Source of the DNA: an uncultured Alphaproteobacteria bacterium
Lineage (GTDB): Bacteria; Pseudomonadota; Alphaproteobacteria; Rhizobiales; Aestuariivirgaceae
Length of the DNA: 64,000 nucleotides
Assembly (NCBI GenBank): GCA_963819615.1
Contig: CAWFWW010000004.1
Location: 573,705 to 637,704, forward strand
Direction: 5' to 3'
This document shows positions 7,787 to 62,877 of the stretch, in pieces. Numbering within the stretch: the first letter of the stretch is position 1; each line of letters begins with the position of its first letter. The position numbers and the translations under genes were made by a program. The notes below the pieces were generated by a model. The model was not told where the DNA came from and ran no database searches. It worked only from the letters and a program-made list of their open reading frames with translations.

Positions 7787-7912
7787 TTCTTCCCCCTCCC
7801 CCTTGTGGGGAGGGTTGGGGTGGGGTCGGGCGCTTGATCAGAATTGCAAGAAAACCATGCATGGACAGGTCGGAGCGACCCCCACTGAAACCTCCCCACA
7901 AGGGGGAGGGAA
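7787..7912. repeat. REPIN-like element, family A (inverted CCCTCCCCCTTGTGGGGAGGG arms)
   Basis: Inverted palindromic arms around a variable core; same family as 22910-23036 and 23113-23239. Confidence 0.85.
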
Positions 7913-22687: not shown

Positions 22688-22728
22688 GGACTACTTCCCC
22701 CTCCTCCTGGCGGGGATCAACAAACTCT

Positions 22729-22832
22729 CCCCTCCCTTGAGGGAGGGGTAGGGGTGGGTGTCAGCCCCAAGTGAGATCGAACTTCCATTGCGTGGCTGGC
22801 ACCCGCCCCCGGCCCCGCCCTCAAGGGCAGGG
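22729..22832. repeat. REPIN-like element (family D) upstream of ruvB
   Basis: Inverted arms matching the tolB element in reverse orientation. Confidence 0.8.
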
Positions 22833-22848
22833 AGCTGAACAAACACAC

Positions 22849-23309
22849 TCATCCCGCCGCCAGCTCCTTCAGCGCCGCACGGATCAATTTCTCCGTGGAC
22901 TGACTAAATTTCTTCCCCCTCCCCCCTGTGGGGAGGGCCGGGGTGGGGGTCGGGTGATCTCGCAGAATAAAGTTCATTCCCTTTCTGCCAAGACGGAGCG
23001 ACCCCCACCCTAACCCTCCCCACAAGGGGGAGGGAATGTTCCTTGCAATCCTCATCCCACCGCCAGCTCCTTCAGCGCCGCGCGGATCAATTTCTCCGTG
23101 GGCTGACTAAATTTCTTCCCCCTCCCCCCTGTGGGGAGGGCCGGGGTGGGGGTCGGGTGATCTCGCAGAATAAAATTCATTCCCACTCTGAAAAGCCAAA
23201 GCAACCCCCACCCTAACCCTCCCCACAAGGGGGAGGGAATGCTATTTCCAAACCTCATCCCGCCGCCAGCTCCTTCAGCGCCGCGCGGATCAATTTCTCC
23301 GTGGGCTGA
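22849..23309 (-). repeat. 203-bp tandem repeat: three copies of the last 55 bp of ruvA separated by two family-A REPINs
   Basis: ruvA tail at 22849-22903, 23052-23106 and 23255-23309; the two intervening 148-bp segments align without gaps. Confidence 0.92.
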
Positions 23310-23869
23310 TCATCGCCGCCCTTGTTCATCGCCGCACCCACAGCCATCGCGGCTTGTGATTGCCCGTATCCCAAATTCACCAGCGCCGACACCGCATCCG
23401 TCACCGCTGTCGGCCGATCAGCAGCCAGCTCCGCCGCCACCTGCCCCAGGCCGATATCCGCCGCCGTATAGGCAGGCGCCTTGTCTTTCAATTCGAGCAC
23501 GATGCGTTCAGCAAGTTTCTTGCCAACCCCATTGGCCCGCCCGATCATCGCCTTGTCCTGCAACGCAATCGCATTCGCCACGTCACCCGGCGACAGCACC
23601 GACAAGATCGCCAGCGCCACCCGCGCCCCCACGCCCTGAACAGTCTGCAAAAGCTTGAACCACTCTTTTTCCATGGTACTCGCAAATCCAACGAGCCGGA
23701 TATTGTCCTGGCTCACCAGCATCTCGGTGTGAACCTCGGCAAACTCACCGACTGAAAGCGTCGACAGTGTCTTCGACGAGCACGACACAAAATAACAAAC
23801 CCCGCCCACATCAACCATCGCCCAGTCAGGCCCGGTGGAATCAATGCGGCCTTTCAGTTTTCCAATCAT
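23255..23869 (-). CDS. ruvA: Holliday junction branch migration protein RuvA
   Basis: MIGKLKG, HhH motif LQTVQGVGARVALAIL and DAVSALVNLGY. Confidence 0.98.
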   Translation of the reverse strand: MIGKLKGRIDSTGPDWAMVDVGGVCYFVSCSSKTLSTLSVGEFAEVHTEMLVSQDNIRLVGFASTMEKEWFKLLQTVQGVGARVALAILSVLSPGDVANAIALQDKAMIGRANGVGKKLAERIVLELKDKAPAYTAADIGLGQVAAELAADRPTAVTDAVSALVNLGYGQSQAAMAVGAAMNKGGDDQPTEKLIRAALKELAAG

Positions 23870-24282
23870 TGGTGCATATCAGGCGCAATAATTTCAAGAT
23901 TTGGAAAGTGCCGACGATACCGCTTGGGATCGCGCGTCAACAAACGATAGCCAAGCACTGCCGCATGCGCTCCGATGAAAAAATCAGGCAATGTGCGTTC
24001 CCGATAGCCGCCAGCTCTGCGATAGGCGACATGCGCCATGCCTGCCATGAACGATGTATGCCAGGGTAAATCTTCCAAAGTGAATCCAAAACTCTCCATC
24101 ATGCGCACCAACTCTTGCTCGCTGCCAAACTCTGGCGCAGCTTCAGCGAGGATAATCGGGTTGACGATAACGTCTCCGGCATCGCGCCACCTGACCAAAA
24201 CGTCCTCTGACCAATCATGCCATGCTTGGCCTGGCCGCAAGAGATCCAGCACAACACTGGAATCAGCGAGGCTCGACGTCAT
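23866..24282 (-). CDS. vapC: PIN-domain VapC toxin
   Basis: LADSSVVLD, IILAE, LPDFFIGAHA and LLTRD motifs; stop overlaps the ruvA ATG. Confidence 0.9.
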   Translation of the reverse strand: MTSSLADSSVVLDLLRPGQAWHDWSEDVLVRWRDAGDVIVNPIILAEAAPEFGSEQELVRMMESFGFTLEDLPWHTSFMAGMAHVAYRRAGGYRERTLPDFFIGAHAAVLGYRLLTRDPKRYRRHFPNLEIIAPDMHQ

Positions 24283-24544
24283 CTGCGGGGCCGCGCACGA
24301 ATTCAATGATTTCATCGGTTGACATGCCGGCATAGGCACTGGTCCGCCGGTTGCTTTGCGCAAACGCGTTCATCAGTCGCGCCATCTTTTGGCCAGGCGT
24401 CTCACCGGATTTCTGCTTCTCGCTGACCAATATCATCTGTCCACCTTCTTCTTGAAAACCGACTTCGGACCCCGGTTCAATTCCGAGTTTTTCCCGGATC
24501 TCTTTCGGGATAGTCACCTGACCTTTGGATGTGACGCGGCTCAT
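24263..24544 (-). CDS. AbrB/MazE/SpoVT-family antitoxin
   Basis: SRVTSKGQVTIPKEIREKLGI AbrB signature; overlaps vapC. Confidence 0.9.
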   Translation of the reverse strand: MSRVTSKGQVTIPKEIREKLGIEPGSEVGFQEEGGQMILVSEKQKSGETPGQKMARLMNAFAQSNRRTSAYAGMSTDEIIEFVRGPADDVEPR

Positions 24545-24569
24545 AAGTAATACCTCACCAGTATTACTT
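24545..24569. promoter_or_regulatory. Putative TA autoregulatory operator
   Basis: Perfect inverted repeat AAGTAATAC-N7-GTATTACTT abutting the antitoxin ATG. Confidence 0.7.
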
Positions 24570-24588
24570 CCACAAACCGGCGAACAAG

Positions 24589-25071
24589 TCAAGAACGTCT
24601 GATCCCCCGGTGATGCGCATGGCATATAGCAATCGCCAGTGCATCCACTGAATCCGCCGACTTCAGCACGGCTTTCGGCAACAGCAGCTTCACCATGTGC
24701 TTGACCTGCGCCTTCTCCGCATGCCCTGCCCCTACCACGGATTTCTTGATCACATTTGGCGCGTATTCCGAAACGGCAATCCCGAGTGATGCCGGCGCCA
24801 GCATGACAGCGCCCCGCGCCTGGCCCAGCTTCAGCGTGGCCCGCGCATCCTTGTTGACGAAAGTCTCTTCGATCGCCGCTTCATCCGGCGCATATTCATT
24901 CAGCACACGGATCAATTGCGTATGGATCTGCAACAGGCGCATCGCCAGCGGCGCATCCGCATCCGAATGCACCGACCCGTCAGCGACATAGATGAGCCGC
25001 GATCCTTCGCTGTCAATCACACCCCAGCCGGTATTTCGCAAACCCGGATCAAGCCCGATAATCCGAACCAT
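24589..25071 (-). CDS. ruvC: Crossover junction endodeoxyribonuclease RuvC
   Basis: [22 protein letters not shown] and [11 protein letters not shown] motifs. Confidence 0.98.
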
Positions 25072-40017: not shown

Positions 40018-41997
<1,980 letters not shown>

Positions 41998-43388: not shown

Positions 43389-43730
43389 ATGAACAATACA
43401 ACAACCCCAAAGAAACGTCCGAACTATGCGCCTGAGGTCCGCCAACGTGCGGTTCGCATGGTGCTGGATCACCAATGTGATTACCCGTCGCGCTGGGCGA
43501 CGATAGATTCCGTTGCCAAAAAGATCGGTTGTGCACCGCAGTCGCTTCACGAATGGGTGAGGAAGACCGAGGTGGACAGTGGCAAACGCGCTGGTGTTCC
43601 GAGCGACATGGCCGAGAAGATGAAGGCCTTGGAACGCGAGAACCGAGAACTGCGCCAGGCCAATGAGATCCTGCGCAAAGCGTCAGCTTATTTTGCCCAG
43701 GCGGAGCTCGACCGCCCGTTCAAGAGATGA
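43389..43730 (+). CDS. IS3 transposase OrfA
   Basis: HTH ([25 protein letters not shown]) plus leucine zipper; [12 protein letters not shown] frameshift region. Confidence 0.92.
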
Positions 43731-44641
43731 TCAGCTTCATTGATGATCATCGTGGAGACCATGGGGTCGAGCCGATCTGCAAGGTACTGCCGATCGCCCC
43801 TTCCACCTATCACGATCATGTGGCCAAGCGTGCTGATCCGGAAAAACTTTCGGTTCGGGCAAGGCGCGACATGGCTTTGAAGCCTGAGATCACACGTGTC
43901 TTCGAGGACAACTTTGCGGTCTATGGGGTTCGCAAAGTCTGGCGACAATTGAAGCGCGATAACCTTGATGTGGCCCGCTGTACAGTCGAGAGGCTTATGA
44001 AAGAGATGGGATTACGGGGCGTTATTCGCGGCAAGCCGATACGCACCACCTTCAGTGATAAAGCAGCAGCTTGCCCGCTTGATCACGTCAATCGTCAGTT
44101 CCATGCGCCAGCCCCCAACAGGCTGTGGGTGTCGGACTTCACCTATGTCTCGACTTGGGGAGGGATGATCTATGTCGCCTTCGTCATCGATGTTTATGCC
44201 CGCTACATCGTGGGCTGGCGGGTGAGCAGAACCGCCCATGCCGGCTTTGTGCTGGATGCCCTGGAACAGGCCATTCATGACCGAAGGCCCATGAACAAAG
44301 GGGGCCTCATTCATCACTCTGACCGCGGTAGCCAATACCTCTCCATCAAATACACTGAACGATTGGCAGAAGCGGGGATCGAACCTTCGGTTGGCAGCGT
44401 TGGTGACAGTTATGACAACGCGTTAGCCGAAACCATCAACGGCCTCTACAAAGCCGAAGTGATCCACAGAAGAGGGCCTTGGCGCTCGTTCGAAGCTGTT
44501 GAGTTTGCAACACTGGAATGGGTCGACTGGTTCAACAACAGACGCCTGCTGGAACCCATCGGCAATATCCCGCCTGCCGAGGCCGAAGAAAACTACTACG
44601 CAGCAACCGCAGCCATGGACAACGTCCCCATGGCCGCATAA
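43727..44641 (+). CDS. IS3 transposase OrfB (DDE)
   Basis: [16 protein letters not shown] and [14 protein letters not shown] motifs. Confidence 0.95.
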
Positions 44642-48110: not shown

Positions 48111-49292
48111 ATGCCCGCATTTCGCACCCTGAACGACGTTGATGTCAAGAACAAGCGCGTCGTCATCCGTCTCGATCTCAACGTGCCAATTGAAAAAGGC
48201 AAGATCACCGACACCACCCGCATCGACCGCGTCATCCCCACGCTGAAGGAACTGATCAACAAGGGCGCCGCCATCATCATCCTCGCGCATTTTGACCGCC
48301 CCAAGGGCAAGGTCGTGCCGGAAATGTCGCTGAAGCCGGTCGCCGCTCCGCTGGAAAAAGCGCTCGGCCACAAGGTGCAATTCGTCTTCACCGATTGGCA
48401 ATCCGCACCCGCCGTGAACGCGAAGCCCGGCGATGTCATCCTCATGGAAAACACGCGCTACCACGCCGGCGAAGAAAAGAACGACGCAGGCTTTGCGAAA
48501 ATGCTCGGCGGACTTGGAGATATCTTCGTCAACGACGCATTCTCCGCCACCCACCGCGCGCACTCATCGACCGAAGGCATCGCCCACGTCATTCCGGCCT
48601 ATGCCGGCCGCGCCATGGAAGCCGAACTCTCAGCCTTGCAAGCCGCTCTCGAAAAACCCGAACGCCCCCTCCTTGCAGTGGTCGGCGGTGCGAAAGTCTC
48701 AACTAAGCTCGATCTCCTGGGAAATCTCGTCGGCCTCACCAACACCATCGTCATCGGCGGCGGCATGGCCAACACATTCCTCGCAGCACAAGGGTTCAAC
48801 GTTGGCAAATCGCTTTGCGAACATGACCTCATCCCCACGGCACAGGAAATCATCGCAAAGGCCAAGGCCAAAAACTGCACGCTGCTCTTGCCCGTCGATG
48901 CCGTCGTCGCCAAAGAGTTCAAGGCCGGTACCACATCACGCACCGTGACACTGGATCAAGTGGCAGCAGATGACATGATCCTCGACGTCGGCCCGAAATC
49001 CATTGCCGCAGTCAACGCCGCCTTCGATGCCGCCAAAACCGTCGTCTGGAATGGCCCCATGGGCGCCTTCGAAATCGCTCCTTTCGATCACGCCACAGTC
49101 GCCGCAGCCCAACACGCCGCCAAACTGACCAAGACGGGAAAACTCGTAACCGTCGCCGGCGGCGGCGATACTGTGAGTGCACTCAACCACGCCAGAGCGG
49201 CGGATGATTTCACCTACATCTCAACAGCAGGCGGCGCTTTTCTAGAATGGCTGGAGGGGAAGGAACTGCCCGGGGTGAAGGCATTGTCTTGA
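48111..49292 (+). CDS. pgk: Phosphoglycerate kinase
   Basis: [27 protein letters not shown] and [18 protein letters not shown] motifs. Confidence 0.99.
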
Positions 49293-49299
49293 TCTTATA

Positions 49300-49328
49300 T
49301 TGACATCTGACACGTGACGCATTACACT
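49300..49328 (+). promoter_or_regulatory. Sigma70-like promoter of higBA, probably leaderless
   Basis: TTGACA-N17-TACACT with the higB ATG 8 nt later. Confidence 0.6.
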
Positions 49329-49335
49329 CAGGCAA

Positions 49336-49614
49336 ATGATCGTTTCGATCCGCCACAAGGGCCTACGTCGACTTTATGAGTTAGATGATCCGCGCGGCGT
49401 GATAGCGGATCACGCAGACAAACTGCGGCGCATTCTAGCACGACTGGATGCTTCGCAAAGTGCCGCAGACATGGACCTGCCGGGTTATCGACTCCACCCG
49501 CTAAAAGGCGAACTGCGTGGCCTTCACGCCGTCACAGTCAGAGCGAATTGGCGTGTGGTGTTTCGTTTTGAAAATGGGAACGCCGTCGATGTTGATTACC
49601 TGGACTATCACTGA
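49336..49614 (+). CDS. higB: HigB (RelE/ParE-fold, plasmid killer type) toxin
   Basis: IRHKGLRRLYE, LHPLKG and VRANWRVVFRF..VDYLDYH motifs. Confidence 0.92.
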   Translation: MIVSIRHKGLRRLYELDDPRGVIADHADKLRRILARLDASQSAADMDLPGYRLHPLKGELRGLHAVTVRANWRVVFRFENGNAVDVDYLDYH

Positions 49615-49626
49615 AAGGAATTCGCA

Positions 49627-49911
49627 ATGCCCATGAAGAATCCACCCCATCCCGGAACGATTGTCCTTCGAGACTGCATTGAACCCTTGGGACTGAGCAT
49701 AACTGGCGCTGCGAGTTCCCTTGGCGTAACACGCAACACGTTGTCCGAACTTGTCAACGCCCGCCGCGGCATCTCCCCCGAAATGGCCATCCGCCTTTCA
49801 AAAGCCTTCGGCGGCAGTCCGGAAAGCTGGCTGACCCAACAAGCCCACTACGACCTCTCACAGATCGCGGCGGATCGCATCAAGGTGAAGCGTGTGAAGG
49901 AGGCGGCGTGA
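49627..49911 (+). CDS. higA: HigA antitoxin
   Basis: PPHPG, XRE HTH and ISPEMAIRLSKAFG..WL motifs. Confidence 0.93.
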   Translation: MPMKNPPHPGTIVLRDCIEPLGLSITGAASSLGVTRNTLSELVNARRGISPEMAIRLSKAFGGSPESWLTQQAHYDLSQIAADRIKVKRVKEAA

Positions 49912-49982
49912 TGTCCGGCGGCGCGTTTCTGGAATGGCTGTAGGGGAAAGAATTGCCGGGCGTGAAGGCGTTGGAGGGATAG
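49911..49982 (+). repeat. Displaced copy of the pgk 3' end
   Basis: 49917-49973 vs 49230-49286: 49/57 identical; reads [22 protein letters not shown]. Confidence 0.92.
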
Positions 49983-50579
49983 ATGCAATTTCGACTCTTC
50001 TACCAGGGCCCGCTGTATTCATCGCAAGGCGAGCCTCGAAATGGGGCTCCCGATAGGCGAGCAAAAAACAAGCATGAGGTAAGAAAGCAATTTCATCCTC
50101 AACTGAAACATCTATGGTCAATCAAGGAAGAACTGAATTCTGCCAAGCATAATGAGCAATCACTTATGGACTATCTGGCATCTTGTCACGACTCTTTTGG
50201 CATGAAATGGGTACCGCTTGTCAACGAGCAACACTTTCTGCACTGTAGCTTAAAGATATTGTTCTTGCGCAGAGATCGGCCCGGGGGAATTTTCGAGACC
50301 CGCGACATTGATAATAAACTCAAGACACTTTTCGACGCGCTCCGGATGCCTTTAGACTCCAATGAGTTCGATCCGACCCAAGAGGATAGGGACGCGGGTC
50401 CAATATTCGTACTATTGTCAGATGATAAACTCATTAGTGGAGTTACGGTAGAAACTGATGAATTGCTTGACCCACCAGATGCCGCAAGTGACACTGATGG
50501 TGCCCTTGTTCGCGCCATCATTACAGTGAACGTCAAGTTATACAAAGTAACCATAGACAACATTGCTTTTGGACTATGA
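49983..50579 (+). CDS. Hypothetical protein with a RusA-like catalytic motif
   Basis: RDIDNKLKTLFDAL..LSDDKLI resembles RusA DxDNxxKxxxDAL..DD; AT-richer than host genes. Confidence 0.6.
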   Translation: MQFRLFYQGPLYSSQGEPRNGAPDRRAKNKHEVRKQFHPQLKHLWSIKEELNSAKHNEQSLMDYLASCHDSFGMKWVPLVNEQHFLHCSLKILFLRRDRPGGIFETRDIDNKLKTLFDALRMPLDSNEFDPTQEDRDAGPIFVLLSDDKLISGVTVETDELLDPPDAASDTDGALVRAIITVNVKLYKVTIDNIAFGL

Positions 50580-50780
50580 AGTTTCATATAACGGCTGCTG
50601 CACTATCGCCCACACCAACCCCGTCATTCCATGCAAGGGCGTGTTTTCGCATCGCGCAAACGGAAGCCAGCTTTGGCAACAACAAGCTCGCCTGTTGGAA
50701 GCGAGAACAAGCCGCATAACGCGAGTCCATCTTCGCTCATCCCTCTTACTCGGTGCATCGCGCCAACTTCTCGAAAAACT

Positions 50781-51116
50781 TCAGTTGTCCTCCGAAAAGC
50801 TGAGGTTCGAAATCCCGAACTTGCCTTCAAACGCAGCGCCCGCATCGCGCGAGCCATGGAGCACACGGGCGATGGCAATGTTGTCGTTGACGAACATGTA
50901 GAACACCACATGTTTCCCGCTCACGAAACTGCGAAGCGCATCATCAATCTCTGGCCGCACGCGCCCGATTGTCTGGTTCAGCGCGAGCAGATCGAAAGAC
51001 GCATATAGTTCACCCAGATACTTGGCGGCTTGAGCTTCGCCCCAAGTGTCCCTTGTGTATTCATAAAGTGACGAGATGTCTTGTTTTGCAAGTTCGGAAA
51101 GAAGGTACGCCTTCAT
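50781..51116 (-). CDS. parE: ParE toxin
   Basis: LSELAKQDI..WGEAQA, GKHVVFY and IARVLHGSRD motifs. Confidence 0.92.
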   Translation of the reverse strand: MKAYLLSELAKQDISSLYEYTRDTWGEAQAAKYLGELYASFDLLALNQTIGRVRPEIDDALRSFVSGKHVVFYMFVNDNIAIARVLHGSRDAGAAFEGKFGISNLSFSEDN

Positions 51117-51358
51117 TTTGCACTGCGACGCGCCTTACTTTCCTCGATGATGTCAGCGGCTGAAACCCTTGACACTTTCCTTGCCTTGATCTGCGCTACA
51201 CCCGCAAGTACGTCACGTTTCAACGCCGTGAGTTTTAACTGATATTCGCTTTGCAACCGCAACGCATCCCGCACAACTTCGCTGGCATTGTTGAAGTGCC
51301 CAGATGCAACCTGCTCGGACACATATTTCTCCCACGTCTTTCCCAAAGATACATTCAT
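51113..51358 (-). CDS. parD: ParD antitoxin
   Basis: MNVSLG..VASGHFNNASEVVRDALR RHH signature; ATGA overlap with parE. Confidence 0.92.
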   Translation of the reverse strand: MNVSLGKTWEKYVSEQVASGHFNNASEVVRDALRLQSEYQLKLTALKRDVLAGVAQIKARKVSRVSAADIIEESKARRSAK

Positions 51359-51471
51359 CACGCAATTTCTCCTGGGTTGCTCATAGCATCTATTGTCAAT
51401 TATTGCTAGAGTCGAATTGTTTGGCAGGGATGAAAGAGTGTGGGATGAGTAAATAAACACAGGAACACCCC

Positions 51472-59316: not shown

Positions 59317-59415
59317 GTATCAGCAAATCCATGTTTGTTGGAATCGCCCTCACCCAATATTCGTCATGGCCCGCCTGAAGCTGCTGCTGTCCGGCTAACT
59401 CGAAATCCCCAATTC

Positions 59416-62637: not shown

Positions 62638-62877
62638 CGTCATGGTCCGCGCAGGCGGACCGCCCACCGTATGTAAAATCAAACCTGCAGTGGTTCCTCC
62701 GCCTTCGCGGAGGATGACGGCGATGGAGTTGCGACAAGTGCACTGCTGTCCGGTTAACACGAAATCTCCCAAAATTGTCATCCCCGCACTTGTTGCGGGG
62801 ACCGATGGTTCCCCGCGACAAGCGCGAGAATGACTACATTATTTGAAAGTTCGAGCTTGCAATGAGAACTGAACTGA
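62638..62877. repeat. Cluster of family-C REP doublets
   Basis: GTCATGGTCCGC..GCGGACC / GGTTCCTCCGC..GCGGAGGATGAC and TGTCATCCCCGC..GCGGGGACC / GGTTCCCCGCG..GAGAATGAC. Confidence 0.75.

Follow-up and report, generated by a model that had tools for sequence, protein, structure and literature searches.

In a 64,000-nucleotide (nt) stretch of DNA from an uncultured alphaproteobacterium of the family Aestuariivirgaceae (contig CAWFWW010000004.1, positions 573,705 to 637,704; called the window below), a toxin–antitoxin (TA) module lies inside the end of pgk, the gene for phosphoglycerate kinase (PGK). The module, comprising a promoter, higB and higA in ~0.69 kb, is integrated within the last ~20 codons of the gene. 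It is bounded by two versions of the pgk end: a working tail, T1, that completes the gene, and a displaced tail, T2, that lies behind higA. The same arrangement is found in four other, diverged lineages, and across the carriers the displaced tails have changed in the manner of coding sequence. The explanation that we favour, at a probability of about one half, is integration inside the pgk tail together with ongoing recombination with working pgk ends.

A toxin–antitoxin module between two pgk tails

The locus comprises the following elements, all on the forward strand.

48111–49292, + strand: pgk, full-length phosphoglycerate kinase of 393 amino acids (PF00162, E 4e-145, profile positions 1–379 of 379)
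49230–49286, + strand: T1, the working pgk tail, 19 codons corresponding to pgk codons 374–392 (repeat family D7)
49287–49299, + strand: cassette-linked pgk end, in which TCT TGA makes the terminus ...S*, followed by a spacer of 7 nt; 49286 is the last base homologous to T2
49300–49328, + strand: predicted strong higBA promoter, TTGACA-17-TACACT (promoter scan, 10/12 matches), whose hexamers enclose a palindrome centred on CACGTG
49336–49614, + strand: higB, predicted RelE-fold toxin of 92 amino acids (PF05015, E 1e-20, above the gathering score)
49627–49911, + strand: higA, predicted helix-turn-helix (HTH) antitoxin of 94 amino acids (PF01381, HTH_3, E 8e-11; TIGR02607 equivalog, 99.3 bits against a cut-off of 47.7)
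49908–49943, + strand: mini open reading frame (ORF) in the T2 frame, whose starts GTG (49908–49910) and ATG (49911–49913) overlap the higA TGA and which is closed by TAG at 49941–49943; its translation is hypothetical
49917–49982, + strand: T2, the displaced pgk 3′ end, made up of the 57-nt repeat and its own end GAG GGA TAG (49974–49982); a pgk C-terminal pseudogene fragment

The two tails form a direct repeat of 57 nt (49230–49286 and 49917–49973) with a start-to-start spacing of 687 nt. They are identical at 49 of the 57 positions, where the chance of at least 49 matches is ~1e-19. Taken codon by codon the eight differences are seven synonymous changes and one GAG to TAG change, at 49941–49943 in T2. 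The repeat had already been described in a first-pass annotation of this DNA, and that description is accurate in every detail, including the ATG that overlaps the higA stop (TGA, 49909–49911) and the ATG of the next gene, orf198, which at 49983 directly follows the T2 stop. The longest identical runs are of 8–9 nt (GGCGGCGC, GAATGGCTG and GTGAAGGC), a length that would suffice for the overlap region of a tyrosine recombinase but is not diagnostic of one.

The pgk reading frame closes KALS-TGA, with the stop at 49290–49292, and the PGK of the window has 85–90% amino-acid identity to those of L001, L002 and L161, the last of which is a carrier of the same module. T2 has no pgk body upstream and carries the TAG. 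It ends ALEG*, resembling the ALE.. ends of non-carrier relatives (ALEVK*, ALETK*). A search of Rfam, a terminator scan and RNA folding on T1 and T2 gave no RNA family, structure or terminator, and the stem-loop z-scores are not significant (−0.5 for T2 and 0.1 for T1).

The space between the tails measures 630 nt and contains the promoter, higB and higA as its sole genes. The toxin gene stands directly before the antitoxin gene, in the reversed order of HigBA systems. By its families and its gene order the module fits a HigBA type II TA system, with toxicity and neutralization as predicted properties, and the CACGTG palindrome is probably the HigA operator. The motif TTGACATC.G.CACGTG....TACA is kept in all homologous cassettes, those at other loci included. 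HigB has 6353 homologues at E ≤ 1e-10, of which the closest are 87–90% identical and likewise adjoin pgk; exact-protein look-ups of the window's own PGK and HigB gave no record. Homologous higBA cassettes with HigB 78–83% identical are present in L165–L170 and L175–L184. There they occupy the gap between tkt and pgk, upstream of pgk and often behind a small variable ORF, and their borders are exactly the −35 box and the higA stop. Judged by this homology, one higBA cassette family flanks pgk on either side in different lineages.

The arrangement in other lineages

Is the arrangement peculiar to this genome? Four metagenome contigs (L161–L164), all of them located via HigB, have the order pgk–T1–promoter–higB–higA–T2 as far as they extend; L162 begins at the promoter, with pgk and T1 outside the contig, and L164 ends inside T2. 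The junction of higA with T2 is identical to that of the window in L161, L162 and L164, consisting of the higA TGA, five nucleotides and GGCGGCGCG. L163 has a variant junction that retains Y-S-T-A of PGK, so that T2 extends further upstream, with nine bases missing and in-frame deletions. All five carriers have an NTG codon, in frame with T2, that overlaps the TGA of higA. At the other border the window, L161 and L163 have a T1 that closes with ...ALS*, separated from TTGACA by a few bases; in L164 it closes with ALER* and abuts TTGACA directly. The ends of T2 are EG* (window and L162), EEK* (L161) and S* (L163), and the DNA that follows is unrelated across lineages: orf198 in the window, RraB in L161 and L162, and in L163 a gene without a Pfam match that is methylase-like by its N-terminal sequence.

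The divergence between carriers is large, with a proportion of synonymous differences (pS) of 0.42–0.77 and a synonymous divergence (dS) of ~0.6 or more. Thus four more diverged lineages share the layout, and the arrangement is either old or repeatedly re-made, not a recent entry into this genome. The first-pass annotation had the cassette enter by recombination in the pgk tail. The layout is as expected for such a process, and the module has no recombinase; entry into this genome in particular does not stand, given the four other lineages at dS ~0.6–1. The accompanying proposal, that the cassette brought a working tail and displaced the old one, agrees with the ends themselves, in that T1 closes ...KALS* a short way before the −35 box in three of the four carriers where it can be seen and the ALEG* of T2 is like the ends of non-carriers.

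A second tail or cassette genes were sought at 160 other pgk loci, from genomes and metagenomes, and none was found. The locus of the window is contained in six metagenome runs as short low-depth contigs; those of runs X1–X3 and X5 span T1–higB and higA–T2–orf198 with 0–11 differences. A single joint that skips 702 nt was considered as an empty site and rejected, being the pgk of another organism (FSFVSTAGG...) that matches T2.

Displaced tails have evolved as coding sequence

Across the four carriers in which it is available, T1 has accumulated 22 synonymous and no nonsynonymous changes. T2 has 26 synonymous changes against 12 that are nonsynonymous or lesions, far from neutral decay, for which ~74% nonsynonymous would be expected (P = 5e-8), and its variation falls preferentially on third codon positions (P = 3e-4). 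The T2 sequences of the window, L161 and L162 are 82–88% identical to one another, which far exceeds the neutral expectation at this divergence (pS 0.44–0.77; P < 1e-7). The lesions differ from lineage to lineage: the TAG in the window, a 1-nt deletion in L162, E>D and K>M in L161, G>V in L164 and several in L163. Past both the TAG of the window and the frameshift of L162 the old reading frame is still intact. The coding-like substitutions and the shared identity thus indicate that the displaced tails have been under PGK-type selection for most of their history. On this pattern of change, they were working pgk ends until recently, or have been renewed by recombination.

T2 of the window is identical to the working tail of L163 at 55 of 57 positions, where the best of 160 unrelated pgk tails reaches 49, and this is the only match that stands out in the comparison of the 57-nt tails. 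A phylogeny of the tails was rejected; their synonymous sites are saturated and biased, and unrelated alphaproteobacterial tails reach 50–52/57, the same as across carriers. Conversion of T2 by T1 within a genome was rejected as the cause of the coding-like pattern, because T1/T2 identity within a genome (49–50/57) is no higher than that between genomes.

A mosaic pgk gene

The pgk gene of the carriers is itself composite. In the N-domain the window, L161, L163 and L164 have 82–88% nucleotide identity, share a motif and resemble one another more than they do any non-carrier. Two deep types can be told apart in the C-domain, at a proportion of nonsynonymous differences (pN) of ~0.25; the window and L161 group with L001, and L163 and L164 with L005 and L004. 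Two such types on a shared N-domain indicate that homologous exchange with diverged alleles has acted on pgk, and the mosaic makes a tree of the whole gene unusable as a host tree.

Several local features are found towards the 3′ end of pgk in the window. AGA (Arg) is present at 49194–49196, within the conserved HAGAADDF motif, where 17 related PGKs have Gly and one Lys. The last ~130 nt use codons that are rare in the remainder of the gene, and the codon usage of T1 is unusual for pgk (a score of −0.38 against 0.60 ± 0.21 for the gene body). The GC skew leaves its local trend from ~49150 to 50580. The change points in GC skew and codon usage were not used as evidence of foreign composition; their resolution is too low to place the crossover, and higBA has co-diverged with its hosts.

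Origin of the arrangement

The structure observed is exactly what a single reciprocal crossover of the Campbell type would generate, if a circular DNA with a pgk tail, the promoter and higBA recombined with the chromosome within the pgk tail. The module would bring its own pgk end, closing ...S* shortly before the −35 box and leaving PGK full length, while the original end of the chromosomal gene would be pushed behind higA and become the 3′ pseudogene fragment T2. As the module has no recombinase, the crossover would have depended on an enzyme supplied in trans, or else on the host's homologous recombination acting on the very conserved codons of the tail. The model predicts that the higA/T2 junction and the T1 end are element-borne, and both are conserved; it predicts that the end of T2 and its flank are host-borne, and both vary. 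A T1 that is linked to the cassette, and T2 ends and flanks that vary with the lineage, are what is expected of a left attachment site (attL) with host DNA on its left and element DNA on its right, and a right attachment site (attR) of the opposite composition. Afterwards the tails would have kept recombining with working pgk ends, by re-integration, allelic exchange or both, and this would be why T2 is still almost intact as a PGK tail and has a single recent lesion, the TAG. The anatomy of the locus, its presence in relatives, the coding-like change in T2 and the mosaic pgk are shown by the sequences; the circular intermediate, the enzyme and the recurrence are the parts of this scheme that we infer.

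A more far-reaching version, rather unlikely in our view, would make the duplicated tail a working attachment site, through which a recombinase-less TA cassette enters and leaves pgk repeatedly, recombining in tail codons that are conserved almost universally. The displaced tails would stay coding-like by returning to service on excision, and lesions in T2 (the TAG, and the frameshift of L162) would lock the cassette in, as its loss would then truncate PGK. If true, this would be a second, recombinational kind of addiction. If the tails are landing and exit sites, very conserved gene ends would constitute portable homology for minimal selfish cassettes, and decay of the displaced end would make loss of the cassette costly.

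A number of observations weigh against integration with ongoing recombination. No tyrosine or serine recombinase was found in the module or in the ORFs scanned within ~8 kb (25 of 85 Pfam families are listed window-wide), and the non-coding DNA of the module amounts to only ~50 nt, giving scant space for arm-type sites. There is no identical run of T1 and T2 longer than 9 nt in this genome. Plasmid and phage collections gave ordinary pgk tails and distant higBA, and no vector with a pgk tail or the cassette, integrase-bearing or otherwise. The joint expected of an excised or empty form, skipping 687 nt, was not seen in the contigs from the six runs, whose low depth cannot show absence. The carriers were collected through HigB only, so that the frequency of empty sites in the clade is not given by this sample. 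Flanking repeats were sought around the homologous higBA cassettes in the tkt–pgk gap, and there were none. Lastly, the shared N-domain, and a higBA that has diverged to the same degree, are compatible with one ancient insertion that was then inherited vertically, although this would leave the coding-like T2 unexplained.

Could the structure have originated without a circular element? This is a real but minor possibility, for which two routes can be drawn. In one, homology-facilitated illegitimate recombination would have had one arm in pgk and the other joined at the microhomology GGCGGCG, which occurs at both the end of higA and the start of the tail. In the other, which is local, a unit of higBA and pgk would have been duplicated in tandem in a relative with higBA upstream of pgk, and the second pgk then mostly deleted, leaving its tail. 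Close higBA cassettes are indeed found directly upstream of pgk, in the tkt–pgk gap of other lineages, and carrier pgk is demonstrably recombinant. Two full copies of pgk would account for the long synonymous-only divergence of both tails, and the T2 of L163, reaching further upstream to Y-S-T-A and differing by in-frame deletions, is also in keeping with such an origin. Yet the local route needs three events where a single crossover would do, with boundaries that must coincide exactly with the −35 box and with a position a few bases past the pgk stop, and a genome with pgk–higBA–pgk is absent among the loci fetched. For either route it is awkward that the ends of T1 and T2 differ (S* versus EG* or EEK*) in three lineages. 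The shared junction moreover implies one deletion before the lineages split and neutral decay of T2 thereafter, and T2 did not decay in this way.

One ancient integration might have been followed by retention of T2 for a function of its own, either as a short peptide coupled to higA translation or as the leader of a downstream gene. This we regard as doubtful. It would draw on the start codon that overlaps the higA TGA in the T2 frame of all five lineages, on the coding-like substitutions and on indels near the 5′ end of T2 that are multiples of three, and the N-domain type common to the carriers' pgk, like the equal divergence of higBA, is in line with vertical descent. However, the TAG cuts the ORF at codon 11 in the window, and a 1-nt deletion cuts it at codon 19 in L162, while the old frame continues intact past both lesions; it was therefore the whole reading frame of the PGK tail that was under constraint. 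Overlaps of the NTGA kind arise readily, as three of the four bases before TGA make a start codon, no RNA family, structure or terminator is found at T2, and the downstream gene is different in every lineage. The first-pass annotation had taken the synonymous differences to mean that the second tail evolved as a functional pgk end in another lineage. A further alternative is that the pgk tail was recently duplicated in place in this genome and then drifted. Tandem duplication of a gene tail does occur in the window, at ruvA (see below), but for pgk it is very improbable: with one nonsynonymous change, the nonsense codon, among the eight, the window alone gives P ~0.01 for divergence in place, the terminal codons of T1 and T2 differ, and the presence of the same structure in L161–L164, at dS 0.6–1, contradicts it. 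Several related pgk genes are present in the source samples, and an error of assembly or binning might have joined those of two organisms. Against this, the same junctions are found in independent assemblies from other samples and studies (L161–L164), and both junction regions are covered by the near-identical contigs of X1–X3 and X5. With the junctions reproduced by independent assemblies and by contigs from six runs, the artefact is ruled out.

Relation to known integrated elements

Integration inside the pgk tail has a close structural counterpart. The e14 element of E. coli is flanked by icd and an icdC fragment, and its excision re-forms icd from both copies, as related in a passage of PMC13626634 citing Hill et al. 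1989. Like e14 and phage 21 at icd, the pgk insert lies in the 3′ end of a gene of central metabolism and supplies a replacement end that differs mainly synonymously; the original end survives at the far side as a C-terminal pseudogene fragment, and direct repeats of the gene end stand at both borders. e14 is, however, ~15 kb in size with its own integrase and excision functions, whereas the insert in pgk is of 0.69 kb, comprises a TA operon alone without a recombinase, and excision was not observed. In contrast to e14 and phage 21, the two repeat copies at pgk, 57 nt in length and 86% identical, have no long identical core. Should the pgk tails be a frozen scar rather than landing and exit sites, the locus would simply be a small relative of the e14/icd arrangement.

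Comparison may also be made with cis-mobilizable elements (CIMEs), known together with accretion at the ends of target genes (PMC5704250). Like the CIMEs of the ICESt1 family at fda, and like integrative and mobilizable elements (IMEs), the pgk module fits the structural definition of an integrase-less CIME at the 3′ end of a core gene. Unlike the CIMEs, no parental IME or integrative and conjugative element (ICE) that targets pgk was found at the 160 other pgk loci or in the plasmid and phage collections. A scan of every ORF end in the window gave no third copy of the tail bounding the orf198 and parDE cargo that follows T2, so that, unlike in tandem accretion, successive site-specific integration is not supported.

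Chromosomal TA islets that contain no mobile-element genes are also known, and these are spread through homologous recombination at the core genes on either side (PMC13617665). The pgk module resembles such islets as a minimal TA operon between core genes with no transposase or integrase inside, in a gap with high gene turnover. It differs in that islets are not reported inside a duplicated gene end, and here the displaced tail could itself act as the right-hand homology arm. With the integron cassettes that carry higBA or parDE it shares small size, a promoter-proximal TA operon and sharp boundaries. Unlike these it has no attC-like imperfect palindrome (fold z-score −0.5), its flanking repeat is the end of a coding gene, and there is no integron integrase among the ORFs scanned (25 of 85 Pfam families listed). 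The pgk module thus shows a known integration topology in miniature and without a recombinase.

It is an open question how TA operons on chromosomes come to lie between core genes when no mobile-element machinery is visible (PMC13617665). The pgk locus provides a concrete footprint: in five diverged lineages, a TA-only cassette is enclosed by two variants of the end of a core gene. What was unexpected is that the displaced gene end is common to several lineages and has evolved as coding sequence rather than junk.

The repeat at ruvA

The first-pass annotation had gone further, suggesting a general route by which small cassettes accrete at the 3′ ends of core genes, and taking ruvA as a parallel. 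The 3′ end of ruvA (56 nt) together with a 147-nt spacer is repeated as 203-nt tandem units at 22848–23309 on the − strand. The units have 92–96% identity and the three tail copies 95–96%, and the spacer contains a palindromic element with inverted arms of 36 nt. Two of the three differences between the tails are nonsynonymous. This near-identical repeat of a tail and a palindromic element is, from its sequence, a recent local tandem duplication without cargo, and does not parallel the pgk locus. Nor is the general route supported elsewhere. The scan of ORF ends across the window found only pgk and ruvA, none of the 160 other pgk loci has a second tail, and a vapBC-like pair that lies between ruvC and ruvA has no duplicated termini.

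The vapBC-like pair occupies 23869–24625 on the − strand, next to ruvC (24592–25071), and combines a MazE/AbrB-type antitoxin with a weak PIN-domain toxin, whose stop overlaps the start of ruvA. A further, diverged palindromic element is present at 22727–22834 before ruvB, one arm of which recurs at 7793–7826.

The neighbourhood of pgk

Three further features are of note around the module.

43727–44638: insertion sequence of IS3 type, DDE transposase OrfB (rve, HTH_21), within the tkt–pgk insert, 3.5 kb upstream of pgk and ~4.6 kb from the repeat
49983–50579, + strand: orf198, predicted RusA-like fold, neighbouring cargo outside the cassette; G+C ~0.46, below that of its surroundings
50781–51460, − strand: parE/parD toxin–antitoxin pair in the gap between pgk and TMP_TENI (PF05016, E 2e-16; PF03693, E 4e-9; TIGR02606)

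The gene order across the family is tkt–pgk–(fba or MFS)–TMP_TENI–Sel1–inositol phosphatase, tightly packed in some relatives. Whereas tkt and pgk are adjacent in relatives, in the window tkt (40018–41994) is separated from pgk by an insert of 6.1 kb. The gap between pgk and TMP_TENI (53835) measures 4.5 kb and holds higBA, T2, orf198, parDE, an SDR gene, DUF167, an NmrA-like gene and one further ORF; the gene content of this gap differs in each relative. L161 has no parE/parD pair, with RraB lying between T2 and the SDR gene, and orf198 is not present in L161–L163, where other genes sit after T2. The earlier statement that there is no integrase nearby holds for tyrosine and serine recombinases among the ORFs scanned; it has to be qualified by the IS3-type transposase and by the RusA-like gene that abuts T2.

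That gene, orf198, has no match in Pfam, NCBIfam or PADLOC. Its AlphaFold2 (AF2) model has a predicted local distance difference test (pLDDT) score of 90, and Foldseek relates it to RusA (2h8c and 2h8e; probability 0.99, template modelling (TM) score 0.61–0.63), although it is ~80 residues longer than that Holliday-junction resolvase. It belongs to an unannotated family of ~90 proteins with the motif DxDN(R/K)LKxLFDAL, in which D108, D110 and D118 do not vary and R112 and K114 hardly do.

Elsewhere in the window, short repeats at 59384–59410, 62743–62769 and 62768–62821 bracket ~3.4 kb. They include a 27-nt direct repeat (59384–59410 and 62743–62769, 89% identity), and beside it an inverted match translates as ...GPRN(K/R)CGDD...; the repeats may mark the edges of an islet, or else be a repeat element.

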